64,000 bases of DNA from Thermoanaerobaculia bacterium. Its GTDB lineage: Bacteria > Acidobacteriota > Thermoanaerobaculia > Multivoradales > Multivoraceae. The stretch lies in contig OY761158.1 in NCBI GenBank assembly GCA_963664405.1, positions 3,360,001-3,424,000 of the forward strand. The letters are read 5' to 3'. A model generated the notes under the pieces. It was not told the origin of the DNA. It ran no database searches and saw only the letters and a program-made list of their open reading frames with translations. Positions 3,969 to 13,801 of the stretch are shown here, piece by piece (the stretch's first letter is position 1; the number at the start of each line of letters is the position of its first letter). Both the position numbers and the translations under genes were made by a program.

Positions 3969-5201
3969 ATGCCACCCATGGACAGCGGACTCGACCTCTC
4001 ACCCCTACCCTTGAATCAGCGACGGTCGTCCGTTCTCGATGTGCTGTTGGTCTTCGCCGGAGCCAACATCGTCACCACGACATTGGTCACCGGTGGCTCG
4101 ATCGGAACCTCGTTCTCGCTCGCGGACGGTGCCGCCGTTGTCTTCATCGGCACTCTCGTTGGCACCGGTATTCTCGCGCTCCTATCTCGCCTCGGGCCTC
4201 GTTTCGCCGTACCGAGCATGGTGCTGCTGCGCCAGCCCTTCGGCGATCGTGGTTCCCAGGCAATCTCGCTGCTGCTGGTGCTGACGAACTTCGCCTGGAT
4301 CGCGCTGAATAACGTAATCGCCGGCAAGGCCCTCGCCAATCTGGCCGGCGGTGAGGAGTGGCTTTGGTCTGTCGCCGTCGGCGCGGCCGCGGTTGCTCTT
4401 ACTCTCTACGGTCCTCGGGCAATGGCCCTCTTCAACCGATTCGCGGTGCCTCTACTCGTGGTGGTCGGCGTCGCACTCACCGTGGCGCTGTCTACGGCCG
4501 AGAATCGAGCTCGTCTGGCGCTGCCGGGTACGGGATCGCTGAGCTGGCTCGGCGGCCTCGACCTGGTCATCGGCTACCAGGTGAGCTGGAGTCTCATGTT
4601 CGCGGACTACACCCGCTTTCAGCGTCGCGAGAGCCGCGCTGCATTGGCCGTCTTTCTGGGCATGACCCTCAGTAGCATGTGGTTGATGACCCTCGGCGCC
4701 GCCGCCGGCAAAATCGGTGGCGCCAACGACCCCACCGCGATGATCCTGGGTGTCGGACTGCCGATCGCGGCCCTCCTGTTGATGGCGCTCTCAACGATCA
4801 CGACCAACTTCGTGAATCTCTATCTGTCCTCGTTGGCGGTCCGCAATCTGTGGAGCGCGGCGCCGGCGGCGCGTACGGTTCTGACCCTTGGCGCCATTGG
4901 GACCGCACTCGGACTCGCCTCACCGAACCTGCTCGACAGCTACGCCGGATTCATGGGCTGGATCGGATCGAGCTTCCTGCCGATCGTTGCCATCGTCATC
5001 GTGCATTTCTTCTCGCTCCACCGAGAACCGGACCTACCCGCCACTCGCACAGGGTCGATCGCCGCGATGGCGGCGTGGGCAGCGGGCGTCGCCACCTATC
5101 TGCTAGCTCTGCACGTCTACTCGAACTGGGGTGCGACGCTGCCGACCCTGTTGGTCTCAGGCCTCTGCTACCGGATACTCTGCCGCCCTTCGAGAGACTG
5201 A
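3969..5201 (+). CDS. NCS1 family purine-cytosine/hydroxymethylpyrimidine permease (CytX-like)
   Basis: ~12 TM segments; FGDRGS, SWSLMFADYTRF, TITTNFVNLY motifs; start uncertain (3969 or 3978). Confidence 0.8.
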   Translation: MPPMDSGLDLSPLPLNQRRSSVLDVLLVFAGANIVTTTLVTGGSIGTSFSLADGAAVVFIGTLVGTGILALLSRLGPRFAVPSMVLLRQPFGDRGSQAISLLLVLTNFAWIALNNVIAGKALANLAGGEEWLWSVAVGAAAVALTLYGPRAMALFNRFAVPLLVVVGVALTVALSTAENRARLALPGTGSLSWLGGLDLVIGYQVSWSLMFADYTRFQRRESRAALAVFLGMTLSSMWLMTLGAAAGKIGGANDPTAMILGVGLPIAALLLMALSTITTNFVNLYLSSLAVRNLWSAAPAARTVLTLGAIGTALGLASPNLLDSYAGFMGWIGSSFLPIVAIVIVHFFSLHREPDLPATRTGSIAAMAAWAAGVATYLLALHVYSNWGATLPTLLVSGLCYRILCRPSRD

Positions 5202-5343
5202 CACCTGCGCCGTCCTCGGCGCCACGTCCTTTGGCCGAAGGAAGGCGAGCTGTCTCCAATAGCTCAAACTCGTGACCCATGAGTCAAGTCTTCCCTGGTG
5301 CGAGCTCGTGCCGGTGAGGTGGGGTGCCCTGGACGCCCGGCCG

Positions 5344-5434
5344 CTAGGAGTCTGTCCGAGTATTCGGACAGGCGAGTAGTTCTCAGGCGGGGATGGGCCG
5401 GAGAACGGGCCGAAGGCGCGTTCTCCGGGGCTAG
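5344..5434. repeat. CTAG-bounded repeat unit A (~90 bp)
   Basis: Near-identical to 43680-43761 and 43758-43848; internal hairpins CTGTCCGA/TCGGACAG and CCGGAGAACG/CGTTCTCCGG. Confidence 0.9.
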
Positions 5435-5549
5435 GAGCGTGTATCTGGACTCCAATGTCAACAGGGGTGGGTCGGTCTTCTTGTTCTTCGATAGAGGTTT
5501 CCTTGGTGTGTAATCACAGGCAGTATGGAGGTCGATGGTGAGTCAAGAC

Positions 5550-5700
5550 AGCAGACGTATCTCCGGCCTGTAGTGGGCGATTATTAGCGCCGGGCCATGA
5601 TGAAGAAATGCGCGTGAGGGAGCCGAATCGTCCGAAAGGGCCTCGAAGGCCAACGCTCCTATCGGCTTTTCCCCCCACGCCAGTCTGACTGGAAACCATC
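5550..5700 (-). ncRNA. putative bridge/seek RNA of the IS1111 element (ends approximate)
   Basis: Stem AGCCGA/TCGGCT (5621-5626/5662-5667) encloses target-matching ACGCTCCTA and GTCCGA; donor-matching ATGATGAA and TATCT lie further 3' in the RNA. Confidence 0.75.
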
Positions 5701-5790
5701 AGAATTCTCTACTCGCGCTGTCGGAGTGTTTGTGAGTGTTCAATTTGAAGTCTTCGGGTGCGTTGGGGTCCAGAGATCGAGGCCAAGGGC

Positions 5791-6831
5791 TCAGGCCGTG
5801 ACTTGCCGTGGAGGCTGCAGCTGGAAGGAGGTCTCGTGGGTCCAGACCGCCCAGACAACGCGTGCGAGCTTGTTGGCGAGGGCAACGGCGGCCCGGTTCC
5901 GTCCCCGCGAGCTCTCGACTCTGAGGGCCCACTGTTCGAGCCTACCGGCGGGTCCCTTTCTCCTCGCCCAGCTGAGCACCGACCTGGCGCCATGAATGAG
6001 GAGAGTTCGTAAGTACGCGTCCCCGCGTTTGCTGATCCTGCCGAGCCACCGCCGAGCGCCACTGGAGTGTTCCCTAGGAGTCAGTCCGAGATAGCTGGCG
6101 AGATGCCGGCCGCTTTTGAAGCGGCGAATGTCTCCGATCCAAGCGACCATGGCTGTGGCCGTGAGTACGCCTACGCCCTTGATCGTCAGGAGTCGCTTCA
6201 CGGCCTCGTCCTGGCGCGCGAGGGCTTGGATCTGTGCCTCGAGCTCTTGGATCTTCGTGGTCAGCTCGTCGATGTGGTCACAGATGCTTTCGAAAAAGGG
6301 TCGCAAGACGAGCGGGATCTCGGTATCCGGATCCGCGAGCCAGACGCGGACGCGCGGCAGGACCTGGGCGCGTCCCTGGGGCAGAAAGAGCCCGAGCTCT
6401 CGTAGGTGCCCGCGCAGAGCATTGATGTGGGCGGTGCGATCGTCCATGAACGACGAACGGATGCGATGGAGCGTGGTCATCGTCTGCTGCTCGAGCGATT
6501 TGACCGGCACGGGTAGGATGTCCTCGTTTCGATGCGCCTCGAGCATGCCCGTGGTATCCGTTCGATCCGATTTATTGCGCAACACATAGCGCCGGGTGAA
6601 ATGCGGTGGCAGCAGGATCACCTCGTGGCCGAGACTCTGAATACGCCGGCCCCAGTAGTGCGCCGAACCGCAGGCTTCCATGAGGACGGTCGCGGGCTTG
6701 ATCTGCGCGAAGAACCTGAGGAATTTCGCCCTGCGCACGCGCTGCCTCTCGGCGACCTTACCCGGCTCGTAAGACACCGCGATCTCGAAGACATCCTTGG
6801 CGATATCGACTGCGATACGTGTACTCTTCAT
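5791..6831 (-). CDS. IS110 family DEDD recombinase/transposase
   Basis: IAVDIAK, MEACG, KSDRTD (DEDD) and C-terminal HSSG...GRISKRGD; ATG 6831 with GGGAG RBS. Confidence 0.95.
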   Translation of the reverse strand: MKSTRIAVDIAKDVFEIAVSYEPGKVAERQRVRRAKFLRFFAQIKPATVLMEACGSAHYWGRRIQSLGHEVILLPPHFTRRYVLRNKSDRTDTTGMLEAHRNEDILPVPVKSLEQQTMTTLHRIRSSFMDDRTAHINALRGHLRELGLFLPQGRAQVLPRVRVWLADPDTEIPLVLRPFFESICDHIDELTTKIQELEAQIQALARQDEAVKRLLTIKGVGVLTATAMVAWIGDIRRFKSGRHLASYLGLTPREHSSGARRWLGRISKRGDAYLRTLLIHGARSVLSWARRKGPAGRLEQWALRVESSRGRNRAAVALANKLARVVWAVWTHETSFQLQPPRQVTA

Positions 6832-6920
6832 CGTGGACTCCCTTTCTACGATCAACGTTTGCGACTTAGGTGACCCCTGGCACATAGATGCCGAAGTCAC
6901 CGGGGAGTCCATTTCATCAT

Positions 6921-7040
6921 CCGAGTATTCGTCCTGAGCCGTTTCCGTGAGCGAATAGGAAGCAACGCCCAAGTGCGCCGTCCTCGGCGCCGAAAGACAA
7001 CTAGGCGGAGGAAATGATAGCCATCATTTCTGGAGCCTAG
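6921..7040. repeat. repeat unit B, distal part (interrupted by the IS; proximal part 5431-5442)
   Basis: Matches 33091-33224 apart from a short internal indel; ends in CTAG. Confidence 0.9.
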
Positions 7041-7417
7041 GGCGGGTCCTCGGTTCCTCGGGTCGTCCAGGGGCCGCACTTGAGAAGGCGAACCATCGAG
7101 CGCGCCGTGCCTCTGGCAGCGCCGTACTTTTCGATCGATGCCGCCGCATATCGGCTGCATGTGGGAGTGAAGCGGCAGTGCACTCCCAAAACCGGCATCA
7201 CCCTCGACAGGGTTGCCTGGTAGGCGTGAATGCCGCCGAGAAAGAGGCGTCCCGTCCACTGCTGCTGTGGAGCCCGAGCGAGATCGAAGAACAGCAAGAA
7301 GGCGGCCGCGGGCGCAATCAGAAGCCTCCATCGACGAGGCCGAACCGACGCGACCGCCACAGCCCTCTCGTCCGCGCCCGCGACACGACCGGCATCCCCG
7401 GCCGTGTCGGGGCTCAT
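7037..7417 (-). CDS. YidD-like membrane protein insertion efficiency factor paralog
   Basis: YQATLS...CRFTPTCSRYA...RLLKCGPW..G.EDP; extra N-terminal hydrophobic segment. Confidence 0.8.
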   Translation of the reverse strand: MSPDTAGDAGRVAGADERAVAVASVRPRRWRLLIAPAAAFLLFFDLARAPQQQWTGRLFLGGIHAYQATLSRVMPVLGVHCRFTPTCSRYAAASIEKYGAARGTARSMVRLLKCGPWTTRGTEDPP

Positions 7418-7427
7418 CCCTTGCGTT

Positions 7428-7853
7428 TCAAAAACGGTCGGCGTACTGGCTGACTCCGGGAACGAGAAAACGCCCGCCACCGACGCCTTTGACAATACAC
7501 ACCACGCGGACGACGAGAGTGGCGATCCAAACCGGAATCATCGCCAACGCTCCTAGGCAACCGAGGCCGGGGATCATCGAAATTACCGTGAAGGCAACCC
7601 ACAAGATGATCTCCGCGACCAAGAGTACGAGCCCGTGCTTGGCATGCCACTGCACCTCTTTGTCTTCCTTCTCTACCAGCAGTGGTACCAACGCCAGAAT
7701 CCACAGGTAGGACAAGACGACCATGACCGTGTTTACATTGCCCTCTCCTCCTCCGGCGGAGGCTGAGGGTGGTGGCGGCGGCCCTCCCGAGGGAGGCTGA
7801 GGTGGTTCAGGCGGACCCGGCGGCGGCGGCGGCGGGGTTTCGGGCTCACTCAT
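7428..7853 (-). CDS. DUF4870-like membrane protein with Pro-rich N-terminus
   Basis: LSYLWILALVPLLVEKEDKEVQWHAKHGL pattern, 3 TM segments. Confidence 0.75.
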   Translation of the reverse strand: MSEPETPPPPPPGPPEPPQPPSGGPPPPPSASAGGGEGNVNTVMVVLSYLWILALVPLLVEKEDKEVQWHAKHGLVLLVAEIILWVAFTVISMIPGLGCLGALAMIPVWIATLVVRVVCIVKGVGGGRFLVPGVSQYADRF

Positions 7854-7981
7854 GATAGTCCTCTCCTTAAGCGGAAGGCGCGTCTCGGGCCTTCCCGTTG
7901 CAACGAAGGGTGAACCTCCGCAGTTTAGCCGACAGCCCAAGTCCGCCACAAGCGCGCCTCTCCAGACGCCCCAAACCCTCC

Positions 7982-9133
7982 TCAGCCGGAGGCGACCGAG
8001 TCACGGCGCGCCATCTCGTCGAGCGCTCTCTTGTAGACTTTGCGATAGCCCTCGACTGCAGCTTCGCGACCGAAGCGCTCCTGCGCATCGCGGCGACCTG
8101 CGGTGCCAAATCGCCGGCGCAGCTCTTGGTCACGCAACAGGCGGAGAGCGGCCCGAGACATGCCTTCGACATCGCCGACGGGAAGCAGAAAGCCGGTCTC
8201 GCCATCCACTACCACCTCCGGAAGGCCCCCGGCGGAGCTCGCCACCACGGGCACCTCGCAGGCAAGCGCCTCCAGTGCGGCCAGACCGAAGGACTCTGTC
8301 TCCGACGGCAGCAAGAATAGATCGGCTGAGGCGAGGACATCCTCCACCTCCGCGACAGTGCCGACAAACTCGACCCGCTCTCGAACTCCCAGCTCGCGCG
8401 CCGTCCGTTCCGCAATCGCGAGCTCCGGGCCGTCTCCGACGAGAAGCAGGCGGCAAGGTAGCTCCTGGCAGACGCGAAAGAAGATGTGCACGACATCGGT
8501 GACTCTCTTCACCGGCCGGAAGTTCGAAATGTGTACCAGCACGTGTTCGCCGTCTTCGCCCCATCGCCGCCCGCCGCGCCGCGCCACTGCCTCGGGGTAA
8601 CGAGAGGCGTCGACGAAGTTCGGCACCACGTCGATCTGCTTGTCCACCTCGAGCTTGTCGACTGTCGCTTGGCGCAACGACTCAGAGACCGCGGTAACCG
8701 CATCTGAGCGAAGAATGCCGAAGCGAATCGCGTCGATATAGCTCGGATCATGGCCGATCAGGGTGATGTCGGTGCCGTGGAGGGTCGTAACCACCGCCAC
8801 CGGCTGCGGAGCCAGCATCTGTTTGGCGAGGATCGCAGACACCGCGTGGGGTATCGCGTAGTGAGCGTGGAGGATGTCCAGCCCCTGCTGACGAGCAACC
8901 TCGACCATCTTTGTGGCCAGCGCCAACGAGTAGGGCGGGTACTCGAAGAGCGGATACTGCGTCACCGCCACTTCGTGAAAAAACAATCGTTGCCCCGACC
9001 ACGACCAGCGCGGCGGAACCGCATAGCTCATGACGTGAACTTCGTCACCGGTCTCCGCCAGTGCTCGTGCCAGCTCGGTGGCGATCACACCGGATCCACC
9101 CACCGTCGGGTGACAGCAGATGCCAATCTTCAC
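7982..9133 (-). CDS. bshA: N-acetyl-alpha-D-glucosaminyl L-malate synthase
   Basis: KIGICCHPTVGGSG, HAHYAIPH, TTLHGTDIT, HISNFRPVKR, ESFGLAALEA. Confidence 0.93.
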   Translation of the reverse strand: MKIGICCHPTVGGSGVIATELARALAETGDEVHVMSYAVPPRWSWSGQRLFFHEVAVTQYPLFEYPPYSLALATKMVEVARQQGLDILHAHYAIPHAVSAILAKQMLAPQPVAVVTTLHGTDITLIGHDPSYIDAIRFGILRSDAVTAVSESLRQATVDKLEVDKQIDVVPNFVDASRYPEAVARRGGRRWGEDGEHVLVHISNFRPVKRVTDVVHIFFRVCQELPCRLLLVGDGPELAIAERTARELGVRERVEFVGTVAEVEDVLASADLFLLPSETESFGLAALEALACEVPVVASSAGGLPEVVVDGETGFLLPVGDVEGMSRAALRLLRDQELRRRFGTAGRRDAQERFGREAAVEGYRKVYKRALDEMARRDSVASG

Positions 9134-9861
9134 CGCAGCGCTCCCGAGACCAGATGCCACGGGCTGGTCACTGACAGGGGTCCGGCGGAGACAAAGGACT
9201 CACCGTAGGTGGCGCCGATAAGCATGCCGGCATGACGGTCGCGGCCCTCCAGGGCAAGAAGAAACTCGGGAGAGGAGATCTTCGTCGCCGGCGCCAACAG
9301 CTCTTCGGCGCCGGGCTGATGAAGCTGACTCTCATAGGCCTGCAAGGCACTGCGCTTTTGCTCCCAGGTCGAGGTGACATCGACGATGAAGGTCGGAGGA
9401 AGCGGGTCGTGCCCCATATAGCTGAACAGCGCGGAAGATCGATGCGGGGACCCGGCCGTATCGGGCAAGCGCTTTCCCAGGCCGGCGTAGAAAAAGGCGT
9501 CGCGCACCAGATCGTGGGCTCGACCATGATCTGGATGACGATCTCGGGGCGGAGGGCCGAGGACCAGCTCGGGACGCCAGCTCCGCAGCACTTCGATCAC
9601 CCAATCCACTTCCTGGCGACCCTGGCGCAGGCCGCCGTCACCACAGTCGAGGAAGGCAAGCTCCGAGACCCCCAGGGCTGCTGCTGCCGCGGTGGCCTCC
9701 TCGCGGCGTCGCTCGGGTGTCCCCCTGGTACCGGCTTCGCCGGCGGTCAAGTGCAGGATACCCACCGAACGACCCTGCGACGCAAGCAGGGCGAGGGTCG
9801 CACCGCAGCCGATCTCGACATCGTCCGGATGGGCGCCGATCGCAAGCACGTCGACGCTCAA
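9130..9861 (-). CDS. bshB1: bacillithiol biosynthesis deacetylase
   Basis: AHPDDVE, GEAGTRGT, DRHPDH, AYESQ; coupled to bshC and bshA by 4-bp overlaps. Confidence 0.9.
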   Translation of the reverse strand: MSVDVLAIGAHPDDVEIGCGATLALLASQGRSVGILHLTAGEAGTRGTPERRREEATAAAAALGVSELAFLDCGDGGLRQGRQEVDWVIEVLRSWRPELVLGPPPRDRHPDHGRAHDLVRDAFFYAGLGKRLPDTAGSPHRSSALFSYMGHDPLPPTFIVDVTSTWEQKRSALQAYESQLHQPGAEELLAPATKISSPEFLLALEGRDRHAGMLIGATYGESFVSAGPLSVTSPWHLVSGALR

Positions 9862-11468
9862 GCTTCCACCTCCTGGGGGTCGACGATCTGGATCGCGTCT
9901 GAGCTCACATCGAGCTGCTCCCATGCGCGAAGCGCAAACCCAGGTCCATGCCGCAAGGCGAAGTGGGCGGTGCAGAGGACCCTTTCCTGCGGGCGGCCGA
10001 GCGGGAGGCAAGCCGCGCGAATCGACTCGCATCGTTGACGAAGGGTGTCGTCACGACGGACCGCCGCGGCGTAGGCCTTCGCACTCAAAAGATCCAGCGC
10101 TCGCGCCACCTGATCCCGAGTCTTCCGCCAGGGTCGTTCGAGATCGCGGTCGATGCCGAGGCACGGGTCCCGTAGATCTTCGATGCCCGCTAACACCGCG
10201 GCTCGGGCGGTATCCATCGCACCAGCCCCCAGGTCCTCTGCCAGACGACGCTCGAGCTCGGCCTCACTGCCGAGGATCTCGGTCAGCGGTAGGCCCAGCT
10301 TCTGGAGTTGGCGACGGGGTGCGCGCTCGAGAACCAGCATCTGGGGTCGCAAGGCAGTGAACGGTGCCCCGACGTCGAGAATCGGGTACAGCGAAGACGC
10401 CTGGGCCAAATAGGCCAGCTCTCCGGGACCCATCAGCTGCAACGAGCTCCCGAGTACAGCATCCTGAATCGCCGGTCTCGCCAGCACACCGGGAGACACT
10501 GCGCCTGGATCTTCTTCAATCATCGCCAACAGACTCGAAACCTCTCGGGTCTCGTTCTCGCCGCGCAAGCTCCAGCCCTCTTCCCCCTCCCAAACCACCC
10601 GTCGCCGGGCAGACCCCGAAAGAACGAAGAGAGGGCTCGCTCCCTTCTGTTCGGGGACCTGCAGACGATGGCCGCTGTCGTCGACCCTCTTGGCTGCTTC
10701 CGAGAGTGCGGAGGAGACCTCGGCACGCCGCTCCACCAGCCGCCGCAACCAGGGCCGCTCAGCCTTCTTCAACGCCGGCAACATCGAGTCCAGCAGCAGA
10801 GGCGATCGCTCCCCGAGCAGTCCGACCATGAAACGGCTGAAGGCCTCACCGAATGTGGCTTCGGGGCAATAGGCCGACTCGAGCAGCTCCGATCCCGCGC
10901 TCGACACCTCCGTTCCGTACAGAGCCTCGATCTCTTTCAGGACTCGGGCGAGCTGGGGACCCAGAGGGCGCATTCCGACCGGCATCAGCGGATCGAGATC
11001 TTCGCCGAGGTCGAGGACTTTCGCTCCGGAAGCTGCGAAAGTGGCCCGGGCCACCTCGGCGAAGTCATGATCTTCGGTGGCGACCCAGAACACCCCCACC
11101 GCCGCAACGCCCTGGGCCTCGAGCCGCTCCGCCCACCGCGCGACTGCGATCATCTTGGTCAGGGAGTACAGCGGACCGCCGAAGAGCCCGGCCTGCTGAC
11201 CGCTGACGACGATTGCCGTGTTCGGATCGGCGAAGCGCTCAGCAAGCTCTGCCGCGCGGGGATGACCATAGCCCTGGTTCGCCATGGCAAGCTCTGCCGC
11301 GAGGCTGACCCGGGCGCCCGGAGAAGGGTGCGGCTCGAGGACAGAGCCGGGCCGAAGGAAGCGCAGCGGGCGGAGTAGCTCACAGCATCTTCCTTCGAGG
11401 AGGTCGGCTGCGAGGCCCGAAACCAAATGGGAGGCTGGGAGGTGGAGAAGGGGATTCGCAGTTTCCAT
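9858..11468 (-). CDS. bshC: bacillithiol biosynthesis cysteine-adding enzyme
   Basis: SGQQAGLFGGPLY..K, FWVATEDHDFAE, SPGVLARP..QD, GPGELAY, PQER; start approximate. Confidence 0.9.
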   Translation of the reverse strand: METANPLLHLPASHLVSGLAADLLEGRCCELLRPLRFLRPGSVLEPHPSPGARVSLAAELAMANQGYGHPRAAELAERFADPNTAIVVSGQQAGLFGGPLYSLTKMIAVARWAERLEAQGVAAVGVFWVATEDHDFAEVARATFAASGAKVLDLGEDLDPLMPVGMRPLGPQLARVLKEIEALYGTEVSSAGSELLESAYCPEATFGEAFSRFMVGLLGERSPLLLDSMLPALKKAERPWLRRLVERRAEVSSALSEAAKRVDDSGHRLQVPEQKGASPLFVLSGSARRRVVWEGEEGWSLRGENETREVSSLLAMIEEDPGAVSPGVLARPAIQDAVLGSSLQLMGPGELAYLAQASSLYPILDVGAPFTALRPQMLVLERAPRRQLQKLGLPLTEILGSEAELERRLAEDLGAGAMDTARAAVLAGIEDLRDPCLGIDRDLERPWRKTRDQVARALDLLSAKAYAAAVRRDDTLRQRCESIRAACLPLGRPQERVLCTAHFALRHGPGFALRAWEQLDVSSDAIQIVDPQEVEA

Positions 11469-11564
11469 TAAGGCCATCAGGCTCGTTTTCGTGACTGGAG
11501 AGTGGCTGGATCGAGTGGGCGCCAACGAATCTTACGCCATGGGAGATACGCTATTCTGGACTCG

Positions 11565-12260
11565 GTGGTTTTGGATTGGATCGAGATTCCCGCAATGACC
11601 TTCTGGATGGGAGGCAGCTGCAGGGAGGAAGAGGGCCCTCGGCACAGTGTCAGCCTGGGCCCCTATCGACTCGCCCGCACCCCGATAACCCGCGACCAGT
11701 ACCAGAGATTCCTGGACGCGTGCGACCATGAGGCACCGGACTTCTGGGAAGAAGAGAGATTCGCCCATCCTCGCATGCCCGCGGTCGGCCCATCCTGGGA
11801 CGACGCGATGGCGTTCTGCCGCTGGGTCGCCGAGACCAGCGGTGAGGCCGTAGGCCTGCCGAGCGAGGCGGAGTGGGAGCTGGCCGCAAAGGCGGGGAGA
11901 GAGGTGCTCTACCCCTGGGGCGACCAGGGTCCGGCCGGCGTTCCCGACTACGAGCGCCGCTGGGTCGAAGGACCCGAGCCGGTGGATCTCTATCCTTCTC
12001 GCCATCCATGGGGTTTCGTAGGACTCGGCGAAAACGTACACGAATGGTGCTCCGACTGGTACGCCCCCAACTACTACGAAGTGTCGCCGATTGAGAGCCC
12101 ACTCGGACCGCAAGAGGGCCGCCGCCGCTCCTCGCGTGGCGGATCGTGGCGCCACCAGATCAAAGTTACCCGCTGCGCGGCCCGCTCGTCGATCCCCCCG
12201 CACATGCGCTACGCCGACTACGGCTTCCGGCTGCGCGCCGGAGGGAGCGGGAGAGAGTGA
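11565..12260 (+). CDS. formylglycine-generating enzyme (FGE-sulfatase) domain protein
   Basis: FWMG, LPSEAEWE.AA, YPWG, NVHEWCSDWY, RGGSW, GFR; start approximate. Confidence 0.85.
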   Translation: MVLDWIEIPAMTFWMGGSCREEEGPRHSVSLGPYRLARTPITRDQYQRFLDACDHEAPDFWEEERFAHPRMPAVGPSWDDAMAFCRWVAETSGEAVGLPSEAEWELAAKAGREVLYPWGDQGPAGVPDYERRWVEGPEPVDLYPSRHPWGFVGLGENVHEWCSDWYAPNYYEVSPIESPLGPQEGRRRSSRGGSWRHQIKVTRCAARSSIPPHMRYADYGFRLRAGGSGRE

Positions 12261-12307
12261 GAGAGTAAGACTCACTCTCCCACCGCGTCCACTGTAGAAT
12301 CTATCGG

Positions 12308-13291
12308 ATGTTGCGCTTCGGATCGGTCGTCGTCGACCCGCCACTGCTGCTTGCTCCCATGGCAGGCGTTACCGACAGAGATTTCCGCCTGCTGGTACGC
12401 CGCATTCAAGGGGTTGGTGTGGTCTCGATGGAGTTCATCTCTTCGAGGGCGGTAGTCTCGGGCAACCCACACACGCGAGCTCTCATGGACTTCAGCGCCG
12501 AGGAACGCCCCCTCGCAATCCAGATCTACGGCTCCGATGCCGCCACCATGGCAGAGGCGGCACGTGTCGTAGAAGAGCTCGGCGCCGACATCTGCGACAT
12601 CAATATGGGGTGTCCCGCAAATAAGGTGCTCAAGGGGTGCTCTGGCGCCGCTCTGATGGGCGACCCCGCTCTCGCCGAGCAGATCATCGCGGCCGTGCGT
12701 AAGGCAATCTCGATTCCCCTGACGGTCAAGTTTCGGCTCGGTCTCGATGTCGCCTCGCAGAACTACATCGAGTTGGGCAGAATCTGCGAGGCGAACGGAG
12801 TCGCCGCGGTATCGATGCATGCCCGGACCGCGCGCCAGATGTTCAAAGGGGAGGCCGACTGGTCTCAGATCTCGCTCTTGAAGGAAGCTCTCGACATCCC
12901 GGTCATCGGTAACGGGGACGTCCGGGAGCCCGAAGACGCTATCCGCATGATGGCGAGAACCGGTTGCGACGGGGTGATGGTCGGGCGCGGTGCTACTCGC
13001 AACCCGTGGATCTTCCGCCAAACCGCGGCACGTTTGTGTGGAGCAACACTGCCGGAGCCGACGATCGAAGATCGCAGAGACCTCATCCTCGAGCATTTCC
13101 GTATGGTGAGCGCACGCGAGCCTTCGGCGTACGCGTTACACAAGCTGCGCAAATTCACCGGTTGGTACACCTATGGTCTGCCGCACGGGCGACGCCTGCG
13201 CGGCCGCATCAACGAACTTGCAGACGTACCCTCTTTTCTGGCAGCGGTGGAAGATTTCTTCGCCGAGATCTTGCTAGAGGAAGCCGCCTGA
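12308..13291 (+). CDS. dusB: tRNA dihydrouridine synthase
   Basis: LAPMAGVTD, DINMGCP, HARTA, IGNGDV, GVMVGRG. Confidence 0.92.
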   Translation: MLRFGSVVVDPPLLLAPMAGVTDRDFRLLVRRIQGVGVVSMEFISSRAVVSGNPHTRALMDFSAEERPLAIQIYGSDAATMAEAARVVEELGADICDINMGCPANKVLKGCSGAALMGDPALAEQIIAAVRKAISIPLTVKFRLGLDVASQNYIELGRICEANGVAAVSMHARTARQMFKGEADWSQISLLKEALDIPVIGNGDVREPEDAIRMMARTGCDGVMVGRGATRNPWIFRQTAARLCGATLPEPTIEDRRDLILEHFRMVSAREPSAYALHKLRKFTGWYTYGLPHGRRLRGRINELADVPSFLAAVEDFFAEILLEEAA

Positions 13292-13333
13292 AGTCGACTT
13301 TTCGGTGCTCGACGAGGCATCGACACCGTAGCC

Positions 13334-13801
13334 ATGGAAACACAGCATCGGGTCGAGATCGAGGCCGATGTGCCGTTGGCCCTCGAGGCCGTAGCGGACG
13401 CTGCCGAGATGTGGGGCGGCGACTGGGAGCGGCAGGGAGAAGGAGGCCGGCTGACCATCCCCGTTTCTGCCGGCGTTCGCCACGGTCACGTGTCGGGCCA
13501 GATATCGACTCGCCCTCAGGGCCGCGTTTCAGAAGTCGTTCTCCACGTGGAGAGCGTCCATTACCAACTCCATTGGCCATCCCTGGCGGTCCTGCTCTTC
13601 GGAGCAGTCGGTGGGCTCCTCATCGTTGTCGCGCCTTTCTTCCCGCCACTCTTCCCTCTCGTCCCTGTCGGGGTCATTCTCAGTCTCGCCGCTTGGTTCC
13701 TCGTTGTCGCGCGACTGAAAAGCAGAGGGAGCCCCGAGTTCCTCGCTTTCGTGGGAGAGCTGGTTGCGGCGGAGCAAGGGCCGTCGTCCGGCAACGAGTG
13801 A
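13334..13801 (+). CDS. hypothetical membrane protein
   Basis: Coding-like ORF with two C-terminal TM segments. Confidence 0.7.
   Translation: METQHRVEIEADVPLALEAVADAAEMWGGDWERQGEGGRLTIPVSAGVRHGHVSGQISTRPQGRVSEVVLHVESVHYQLHWPSLAVLLFGAVGGLLIVVAPFFPPLFPLVPVGVILSLAAWFLVVARLKSRGSPEFLAFVGELVAAEQGPSSGNE

Follow-up and report, generated by a model that had tools for sequence, protein, structure and literature searches.

An IS1111-group insertion sequence in a Thermoanaerobaculia genome and the RNA that probably guides it to a host repeat

How does an insertion sequence (IS) find the same position in the same host repeat each time it inserts? The question is raised by a stretch of 64,000 nt from a Thermoanaerobaculia bacterium (contig OY761158.1, positions 3,360,001 to 3,424,000; 'the window' in what follows), in which an IS of 1478 bp interrupts such a repeat and carries, downstream of its transposase gene, a long non-coding end with short segments matching both the target and the ends of the IS itself. 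The overall explanation that we consider very likely is that of an IS1111-group element whose transposase is guided by an RNA encoded in that end. Its boundaries, its target, its homologies, the covariation of the RNA structure and the covariation of guide segments with flanks were read or computed from genome sequences.

The IS ends had to be determined first, because the meaning of every short string discussed below depends on them. The genome (one contig, 6.78 Mb) holds three copies of window 5443-6920 at 100% identity, and the same flanks border all three: CTAGGAGCGTGT precedes and CCGAG(T/A)ATTCG follows the IS. Put together these flanks read TAGGAGCGTGTCCGA, a sequence present without interruption 64 times in the genome, twice within the window (33080 and 43759). 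Since three copies have the same flanks and the joined flanks are found uninterrupted, the IS spans 5443-6920 without target duplication; the boundary is ambiguous by one shared T/A that cannot be assigned to either side. Of the six occupied target sites, this IS fills three and a relative of 73% protein identity the other three, with the same position and orientation in all six. The element and its target are as follows.

5443..6920, minus strand: the whole insertion sequence (three copies at 100% identity, identical flanks, 64 uninterrupted joined-flank sites)
5791..6831, minus strand: transposase gene, 346 aa plus stop, starting MKSTRIAV (PF01548 and PF02371, NF033542, GLTPREHSSG motif)
6904..6911, no strand: subterminal inverted repeat of the left (transposase-proximal) end, GGAGTCCA on the plus strand, with a 9-nt terminal extension at 6912-6920
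5446..5453, no strand: subterminal inverted repeat of the right end, TGGACTCC on the plus strand, with a 3-nt terminal extension at 5443-5445
5432..5442, plus strand: one half of the interrupted host-repeat target, TAGGAGCGTGT (flanks, genome matches)
6921..6931, plus strand: the other half of the target, CCGAGTATTCG (flanks, genome matches)

The transposase, whose listed open reading frame extends upstream past the IS end, has the domains PF01548 (E 7.3e-11) and PF02371 (E 2.7e-27) and scores 316.8 bits, against a cut-off of 140, with NF033542, 'IS110 family RNA-guided transposase'. Its C-terminal domain aligns to that of IS621 (8wt6, E 1.5e-10), while the N-terminal domain was not aligned by phmmer. 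The motif GLTPREHSSG, residues 249-258, falls on GLTPRRYESG of IS621 with SG under SG; the aligned catalytic serine of IS621 is S241 (PMC11208158; this paper, PMC11187229 and PMC11208160 are drawn on here in excerpt). The closest named transposase in the plasmid collection, at 49.7% identity, is of the ISPa25 family, and that copy lies within a class 1 integron.

Elements of the IS110 and of the IS1111 group are told apart by features of the ends, the repeats and the non-coding regions (excerpts of PMC11187229 and PMC11208160). Here the subterminal inverted repeats TGGACTCC and GGAGTCCA are of 8 bp, within the 7-17 bp of the IS1111 group, with extensions of 3 nt (right) and 9 nt (left), and 348 nt of non-coding DNA lie downstream of the gene (5443-5790) against 89 nt upstream (6832-6920). 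Together with the DEDD and PF02371 domains, the GL-P----S(T)G motif and an insertion that is site- and orientation-specific and without target duplication at 6/6 occupied sites, these features assign the element to the IS1111 group of the IS110 family. It appears to be an active element.

The target site is the start of a repeat of about 87 nt that resembles repetitive extragenic palindromic (REP) sequences and is frequently found in tandem, at spacings of 87 and 128 bp; GTCCGAGAATTCGGAC makes up its first hairpin. On the strand of the transposase gene the target reads ...CTCGG A CACGCTCCTAG. The part next to the right end, TAGGAGCGT, occurs six times in the window where 0.42 would be expected, a count reached in 0 of 100 shuffles, and its other copies are host repeats. 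Some further observations were made on the two flanks. The repeat forms two hairpins and has 64 copies with the exact 15-mer (window 5343-5442, 33080 and 43759, and genome-wide); read depth over 5335-5421 is about 70 times that of the flank. On the other side, at 6921-7040, the flank runs into a different high-copy repeat (depth about 500 versus 8) in which GAAATGAT...ATCATTTC form an inverted repeat; over its first 60 nt that side is the same at two of the three IS copies.

Does the downstream end encode an RNA? A DNA profile was seeded on the downstream element of the window and iterated twice (nhmmer). For comparison 401 genomes of the phylum were searched, of which 32, the window's own included, had a match at E <= 1e-40, giving 30 loci; six more came from a pattern scan of species genomes with a single protein, and 33 loci with a usable transposase match were oriented. 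The profile matches 32 of these 33, the single miss being a different sequence after a truncated gene. Within the genome of the window it matches seven loci, every one adjoining a transposase gene: three of this IS, three of the 73% species (one with a 5'-truncated gene) and one of a species at 54%. Six of six proteobacterial plasmid relatives, ISPa25 among them, are also matched, one of them over no more than its 5' half. For the ISPa25 non-coding end, which has the same scaffold with arms that fit its own flanks, the match is at E 1.5e-22, and the element is homologous at the RNA level to the ISKpn4/ISPa25 type. Rfam gave no match at E <= 1 in window 5000-7500, although it was not established whether Rfam 15 includes a model for IS1111 RNAs. 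The element so delimited, about 168 nt within the 348-nt end, and its parts are as follows (the four guide arms are named g1, g2, d1 and d2, and P0 is the helix that the first segment forms with d1).

5539..5706, minus strand: candidate seekRNA or bridge-RNA element, delimited by homology (profile match, genome 3365539-3365706, E 6.4e-27)
5696..5701, minus strand: 5' segment UGAUGG, which pairs with UCAUCA of the left-end-matching arm (P0) and resembles the IS left end
5680..5692, minus strand: hairpin H1 (CCAGU CAG ACUGG), helix 2 and the weakest (69% paired, row misplaced by MAFFT)
5612..5680, minus strand: putative target-binding stem-loop, with P1 (5672-5680/5612-5620), P2 (5662-5667/5621-5626), an internal loop and the P3 hairpin (5639-5651); fold z -2.78, helices 3-5 covary
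5653..5661, minus strand: target arm g1, UAGGAGCGU, complementing the strand that carries ACGCTCCTA in the flank by the IS right end (5432-5440)
5630..5635, minus strand: target arm g2, UCGGAC, complementing plus-strand GTCCGA across the insertion point (5441-5442 and 6921-6924)
5597..5604, minus strand: arm d1, UUCAUCAU, complementing the outermost 8 nt of the IS left end (6913-6920), and itself the 3' strand of P0
5565..5596, minus strand: hairpin of P4 (GGCC 5593-5596/5565-5568) and P5 (5588-5591/5576-5579), between d1 and d2; P4 invariant, P5 with changes on both sides in two of four pairs
5557..5562, minus strand: arm d2, AGAUAC, equal to the final 5 nt at the IS right end and the adjoining flank base

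There are 22 distinct full-length RNA stretches among the related loci, 20 of which were aligned with MAFFT, a method that is not structure-aware; L028, whose 3' half failed to align, and L032, a near-copy of L031, were left out. RNAalifold found 18 pairs on this alignment (P0, P1 and P4). The remaining helices were written by hand from the row of one relative and then tested, for a total of 35 pairs in seven helices, so that part of the structure comes from a row of the very alignment on which it was tested; MAFFT puts the row of the window out of place in H1 and P2, and the values for these two helices are lower as a result. Across the 20 RNAs 86.1% of cells are paired, as opposed to 32-48% when partners are slid by 1-3 columns. 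The covariation score is 0.244 (0.07-0.11 when slid) and 50 cells are changed on both sides (4-15 when slid); none of 500 shuffles reached the observed pairing or covariation score. P0 is paired in 91.7% of cells, with changes on both sides in three of its six pairs (UA 9, CG 3, AU 2 and GC 1 at one pair, GC 14, CG 3 and AU 1 at the next). GGCC/GGCC of P4 is invariant, and two of the four pairs of P5 have changes on both sides.

Inverted repeats would exist in the DNA too, and the conserved end might act as such, as transposase sites or as a structured single strand in transposition. We regard this as very improbable, given how the signal is tied to one strand. G-U pairs are frequent and one-sided: one pair of P2 is G-U in 15 sequences and U-G in three, and only the transposase-sense strand fits these, for the other would have C-A. 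The sense strand also folds better, the 74-nt target stem-loop reaching a minimum free energy of -36.5 kcal/mol on the minus strand (z -2.78, 3 of 200 shuffles as good) and -30.3 kcal/mol on the plus strand (z -1.77). Moreover, RNAs from the homologous ends of ISKpn4, ISPa11 and ISEc11 co-purify with the transposases (PMC11187229, in the part drawn on). The computed features, covarying helices, strand-specific G-U pairs and a distinctive stem-loop, are those of the structured transposase-sense element of a seekRNA or bridge RNA.

The first-pass annotation, a reading of the letters of the window only, had proposed that this end encodes a bridge RNA or seekRNA with four guide segments legible from the sequence. 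Its string relations are all found as it gave them. The stem AGCCGA 5621-5626 / TCGGCT 5662-5667 is present, with the inner hairpin GGCCT 5639-5643 / AGGCC 5647-5651; ACGCTCCTA at 5653-5661 is the reverse complement of TAGGAGCGT at 5432-5440; GTCCGA at 5630-5635 equals G5441 and T5442 joined to CCGA 6921-6924, and so spans the insertion point; ATGATGAA at 5597-5604 is the reverse complement of TTCATCAT at 6913-6920, an IS end; and TATCT at 5558-5562 equals 5442-5446 at the other end. The stem-loop does fold as it had described, with the guide arms in the internal loop, and its placing of the element in IS110/IS1111 with an RNA encoded downstream of the gene is borne out by the NF033542 score and by homology to the RNA element of ISPa25. 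The fold that it had suggested for the minus strand of 5443-5790 proved distinctive in the 74-nt stem-loop, the only folded stretch that is thermodynamically so, and not in the end as a whole.

In the direction of the transposase gene the loop reads 5'-AGCCGA UAGGAGCGU (P3 hairpin) UUUCGGACGAU UCGGCU-3'. Arm g1, on the 5' side, is complementary to ACGCTCCTA, the top strand of the right half of the target. Arm g2, on the 3' side, has the sequence of the left half's top strand, extended by one base beyond the crossover, and therefore pairs with the bottom strand. Thus UAGGAGCGU and UCGGAC match opposite strands of TAGGAGCGT/GTCCGA around the insertion point (the slash divides the stretches matched by the two arms). 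The arm order is the one given for IS1111 seekRNAs, the match to the top strand lying 5' of the match to the bottom strand (PMC11187229, section 'A seekRNA finds the target').

If these arms are guides they should change with the target among relatives, and they do. One representative was taken per distinct arm, and the longest common stretch with the cognate flank was compared with that for non-cognate flanks in 20000 permutations; same-target duplicates (L005, L019, L025 and L037) and loci with a flank cut by a contig end were dropped. The relatives share descent and are not independent. For g1, reverse-complemented and compared with 16 nt of right flank, the value is 6.62 for cognate and 3.37 for non-cognate flanks (13 representatives; 0/20000 permutations), and for g2 and the left flank 4.43 and 3.38 (14 representatives; 15/20000). 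Four controls with the wrong strand or swapped side are flat, 4460 to 13518 of the 20000 permutations reaching the observed value. The covariation check set out in the first-pass annotation thus comes out in favour of both arms, as does its claim that the guide is directed at a host repeat, which the two arms match on opposite strands.

Individual elements agree. Outside the permutation test, four elements of a distant clade have four different left flanks, each matched over 6 nt by the element's own g2 arm. The arms of ISPa25 match the flanks of ISPa25, in agreement with the target in Table 1 of PMC13604230, and the plasmid relatives likewise have guide segments that change with the target. 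Within the genome of the window, the 73% relative is inserted at the same site and has both arms preserved, the 3' one in a longer form (UUCUCGGAC), although its hairpin loops and the sequences of its helices have drifted; the 54% relative has different arms and a different flank, with a 7-nt match to that flank.

One 9-mer shared by an end of 348 nt and either of two flanks is no great rarity (a rough estimate gives about 0.04), and the host repeat is abundant, at 64 or more copies, so that a chance match or a fragment of the repeat captured in the IS might be considered. We give this next to no weight. The similarity to the repeat ends at the 9 and 6 nt of the arms, which lie on opposite strands, and the scaffold is conserved in relatives with other arms that match other flanks. 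What lifts the 9-mer beyond chance is that it sits in a conserved internal loop and that covariation is seen among the relatives; this covariation already contradicts a chance origin.

We consider it highly likely that the first stem-loop is a target guide. We infer that this end is transcribed, that the transcript associates with the transposase and that movement depends on it. In the mechanism that we propose, a DEDD/serine transposase would be guided by RNA from the non-coding end downstream of its gene (minus strand, about 5539-5706). The first stem-loop would act as the target-binding loop, its 5' arm UAGGAGCGU pairing with one strand of the target half that ends by the IS right end and its 3' arm UCGGAC pairing with the opposite strand of the other half and one base across the crossover. 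The two arms together would specify TAGGAGCGTGT/CCGA at the start of the REP-like host repeat, in one orientation.

Two observations touch on this target. A site 2 nt shorter, on which the arms would overlap as they do in relatives, was considered and rejected, as it has 0 copies in the genome. Inside the transposase gene, at 6075-6089, TAGGAGTCAGTCCGA equals 12 of the 15 positions of the 15-bp target, including all 6 nt of one arm footprint; it encodes the conserved LGLTP motif and is the only non-repeat instance of TAGGAGNNNNTCCGA among the matches listed (40 of 76). This likeness is probably due to chance, because it is absent from the 73% relative.

What, then, is the rest of the RNA for? 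After the target stem-loop come UUCAUCAU, the P4/P5 hairpin and GGAGAUACG, and this module follows the plan of the target loop: its 5' arm complements the left end (ATGATGAA) and its 3' arm equals the right end (AGAT A) plus the flank base C. The left junction is GG A/TGATG and the right junction AGAT A/CACGC (insertion point as a slash). In register, d2 and the right end of its own element are the same at 7.13 of 8 positions, the figure for the ends of other elements being 5.22 (0/20000 permutations; 15 distinct combinations of 22). It follows the right-end variants AGATAC, ATATAC, ATATAGG, ATACATGC and ATACATT, and also ATATAAGT in the element of a Burkholderia plasmid. Arm d1 agrees with its own left end at 6.95 of 11 positions and with others at 6.20 (1/20000; 21 distinct of 23), and there are two compensatory cases: L048 (Stutzerimonas) has the left end TGCTGTAA and the arm UACAG, and L027 has GGATGAA and UUCAUCC. 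Set beside a bridge RNA, whose second loop holds both IS ends, d2 tracks the right end well; the tracking of the left end by d1, itself a strand of P0, is weak. Both 3' arms extend one to three bases into the right flank, and in this they may resemble, by analogy of function, the handshake guides of IS621, which pair with the other DNA after strand exchange (excerpts of PMC11208158). For many IS1111 RNAs potential donor-binding nucleotides are reported in a multi-loop (excerpts of PMC11208160), a placement that fits with P0 closing a junction.

The second module (P4/P5 hairpin) would then most likely hold the two ends as they are joined in the excised circle, or the right junction, in the manner of a bridge RNA's donor-binding loop. 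A different role is possible, though we think it less probable: the RNA might be a seekRNA that addresses the target only, its second module serving folding, processing or protein binding, while the transposase recognises the ends through the subterminal inverted repeats. The match of d1 to the left end would be a by-product of P0 and that of d2 would have another cause. In keeping with this, P0 covaries and persists in elements whose left end would mispair (L010, L020, L035, L036 and L046), being perfect, with G-U allowed, in 13/21 rows, at 5/6 in six rows and at 4/6 in two. For ISEc11, moreover, movement needs no more than an RNA of 82 nt that carries the target matches alone, end recognition may differ in IS1111, and the role of the long form is left open in the text drawn on (PMC11187229). 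Such a role does not account for d2, which follows five right-end variants in register, and ATATAAGT in the Burkholderia relative, with no intramolecular partner to explain it. Nor does it account for d1 following the non-consensus left ends of L048 and L027, for the common plan of the two modules, with a 5' arm that complements the right half and a 3' arm that equals the left half, or for the potential donor-binding nucleotides already mentioned.

Several results nonetheless weigh against the account given here. The d1 effect is small, and the left end pairs perfectly with the same six d1 nucleotides in only 5/19 rows. These six nucleotides are in the P0 helix, so d1 is not free in the naked RNA. 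The permutation counts for d1 and d2 are inflated, because ends and RNA are inherited together and there are only about five independent end variants. No 2-nt core common to donor and target is visible in this element, a single A/T being shared. Folded alone, the second module does not differ from shuffles in the direction of stability (z +0.46), and the same holds for the whole 348-nt end (z -0.22) and a 171-nt element (z -0.43). As to the target arms, g2 matches the left flank over 3 nt or fewer in L018, L021, L027, L033, L029 and L030, and L036 shares only 3 nt with its right flank; the arms abut here (TCGGAC + ACGCTCCTA, 6 + 9 nt), whereas in most relatives their footprints overlap by about 3 nt. 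A promoter scan of the integrated copy found no sigma-70-like promoter.

Our confidence that the second module is a donor guide is accordingly only a little above even, since d1 is engaged in P0, the counts are inflated and the 82-nt RNA of ISEc11 is sufficient. For the four guide segments read in the first-pass annotation this means that the two target arms are well supported and that the donor half is less secure, its d1 being also a strand of P0.

The 5' segment UGAUGG could have a part in this, although we consider it doubtful: as the RNA's own mimic of the left end it might mask the donor arm, a built-in switch that stays closed until the transposase or the donor DNA opens the arm. P0 is sometimes better kept than the match between arm and DNA. 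If the idea were true, the mimic might be cut away as the short form is made from the long RNA, which would gate donor binding or the balance of excision and insertion, and a mimic combined with a donor arm whose reading extends 1-3 nt past the IS, into the target flank, would be a regulatory layer of IS1111 not described for IS621.

Circular intermediates with a junction promoter have been reported for the family (PMC12288879), and one sequence near the right end may be relevant.

5456..5461, minus strand: TTGACA, -35-like, 13 nt from the right end (found by eye)

Joined ends would give TTGACA-17 nt-TGAAAT, a weak candidate that fails the -10 rule of the promoter scan; it is in line, if weakly, with the junction promoters described. 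A look-up of public sequencing runs listed no RNA run with this sequence. In contigs from public DNA runs (four contig sets) the IS copies are collapsed into one repeat contig that covers 5431-6931 and has about 2.6 times the depth of the flanks. A joint across the IS ends was not found in the four sets, but contigs drop rare forms and cannot show circles or empty alleles. The IS contigs differ from the copy of the window at 4-5 positions and by one 1-nt indel (at 5486-5489, 6076, 6508 and 6733), none inside a guide arm; these are strain or copy variants.

The relatives bear on the history of the target. Those at 55-60% protein identity in the same phylum still adjoin ...GTTGTTAGG, a sequence similar to the attC targets that are given for ISKpn4 and ISPa25 (PMC13604230, Table 1), and for this reason the element looks like a case of natural retargeting from an attC-like site to REP. 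L018, L019, L025, L033 and L027 (54-60% identity; L033 52-63% in two segments) adjoin ...(C)GGTTGTTAGG or similar, a flank that resembles the integron attC targets of ISKpn4, ISPst6 and ISPa25 (the same table); their 5' arms match the flank over 8-10 nt, and their 3' arms match the left flank poorly. Two further IS1111-type species occur in the genome of the window (C1:5487854-5489217, 6025684-6028293 and 592102-593326). The 73% species has the same target and arms, with two full copies and one 5'-truncated copy in tandem; the 54% species has different arms and a different flank. The 73% species is also present, with an identical non-coding end and the same kind of host repeat, in a genome labelled as another family of the phylum (L017, G164:C5:1577425-1581444), which points to a recent transfer of IS and repeat or to closer kinship than the label implies. 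In L050, on a plasmid of Burkholderia sp. SFA1 (AP022308.1), there is AG at both junctions and all four arms include or touch AG, a geometry that comes much closer than that of our element to IS621 with its 2-nt core and ISPpu9 with its AG.

As an example the element is clear: a cognate 15-bp target, the donor ends and four arms are legible in one genome, with 64 free and six occupied sites. The three related IS species of that genome are natural controls, two sharing arms and target and one differing in both. This makes it a convenient candidate for an orthogonal programmable recombinase, and it is suited to testing the role of the 3' half of the long IS1111 RNA, the point left open in the part of PMC11187229 drawn on.

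How does it compare with known systems? RNAs of the seekRNA or bridge type are predicted in 93% of IS1111 elements (PMC11208160, Durrant 2024, in excerpt). The nearest comparison set consists of the IS1111 seekRNA elements ISKpn4, ISPst6 and ISPa25, which target integron attC sites, and ISEc11 and ISPa11, the last targeting Pseudomonas REP (excerpts of PMC11187229). As in these, the transposase is of 346 aa (330-350 in the family) with a GL-P----SG motif, the subterminal repeats have short extensions, the non-coding end lies downstream, and insertion is in one orientation with no visible target duplication; the REP-like target is shared with ISPa11 (same source). The difference from the set is that the target arms abut and do not overlap, and that the system is known here from sequence alone. 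ISPa25, for which a seekRNA is predicted and relatives of which have seekRNAs shown experimentally (PMC11187229, Siddiquee 2024, in excerpt), is the closest named element by transposase, and its non-coding end is directly homologous; its protein is nevertheless only about 50% identical, its arms differ, and the target of our element is the 87-nt repeat of its own genome.

With the bridge RNA of IS621 there is in common one RNA with two internal loops, each with one arm per DNA strand, for target and donor, as well as a REP target (excerpts of PMC11208160 and PMC11208158), a homologous C-terminal domain, and a donor-like 3' arm whose reach of 1-3 nt into the target flank recalls the handshake guides. 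Unlike IS621, as described in those excerpts, our element has its RNA downstream of the gene and not upstream, a reversed arm order and long subterminal inverted repeats; it has no visible shared 2-nt core (CT in IS621), and the 5' arm matching the donor is partly in an intramolecular helix. ISPpu9 and ISPpu10 of Pseudomonas putida (IS110 group) are likewise site-specific in REP sequences and present in multiple copies, but ISPpu9 is without subterminal inverted repeats, has AG at both ends and encodes its bridge RNA upstream, the downstream small RNA Ssr9 being a separate module (PMC12288879). The mechanism, the RNA location, the arm order and natural retargeting are already published (2024), and the known mechanism is unchanged by this element; what could be new is small, namely the left-end mimic that would mask the donor arm and the abutting footprints of the target arms.

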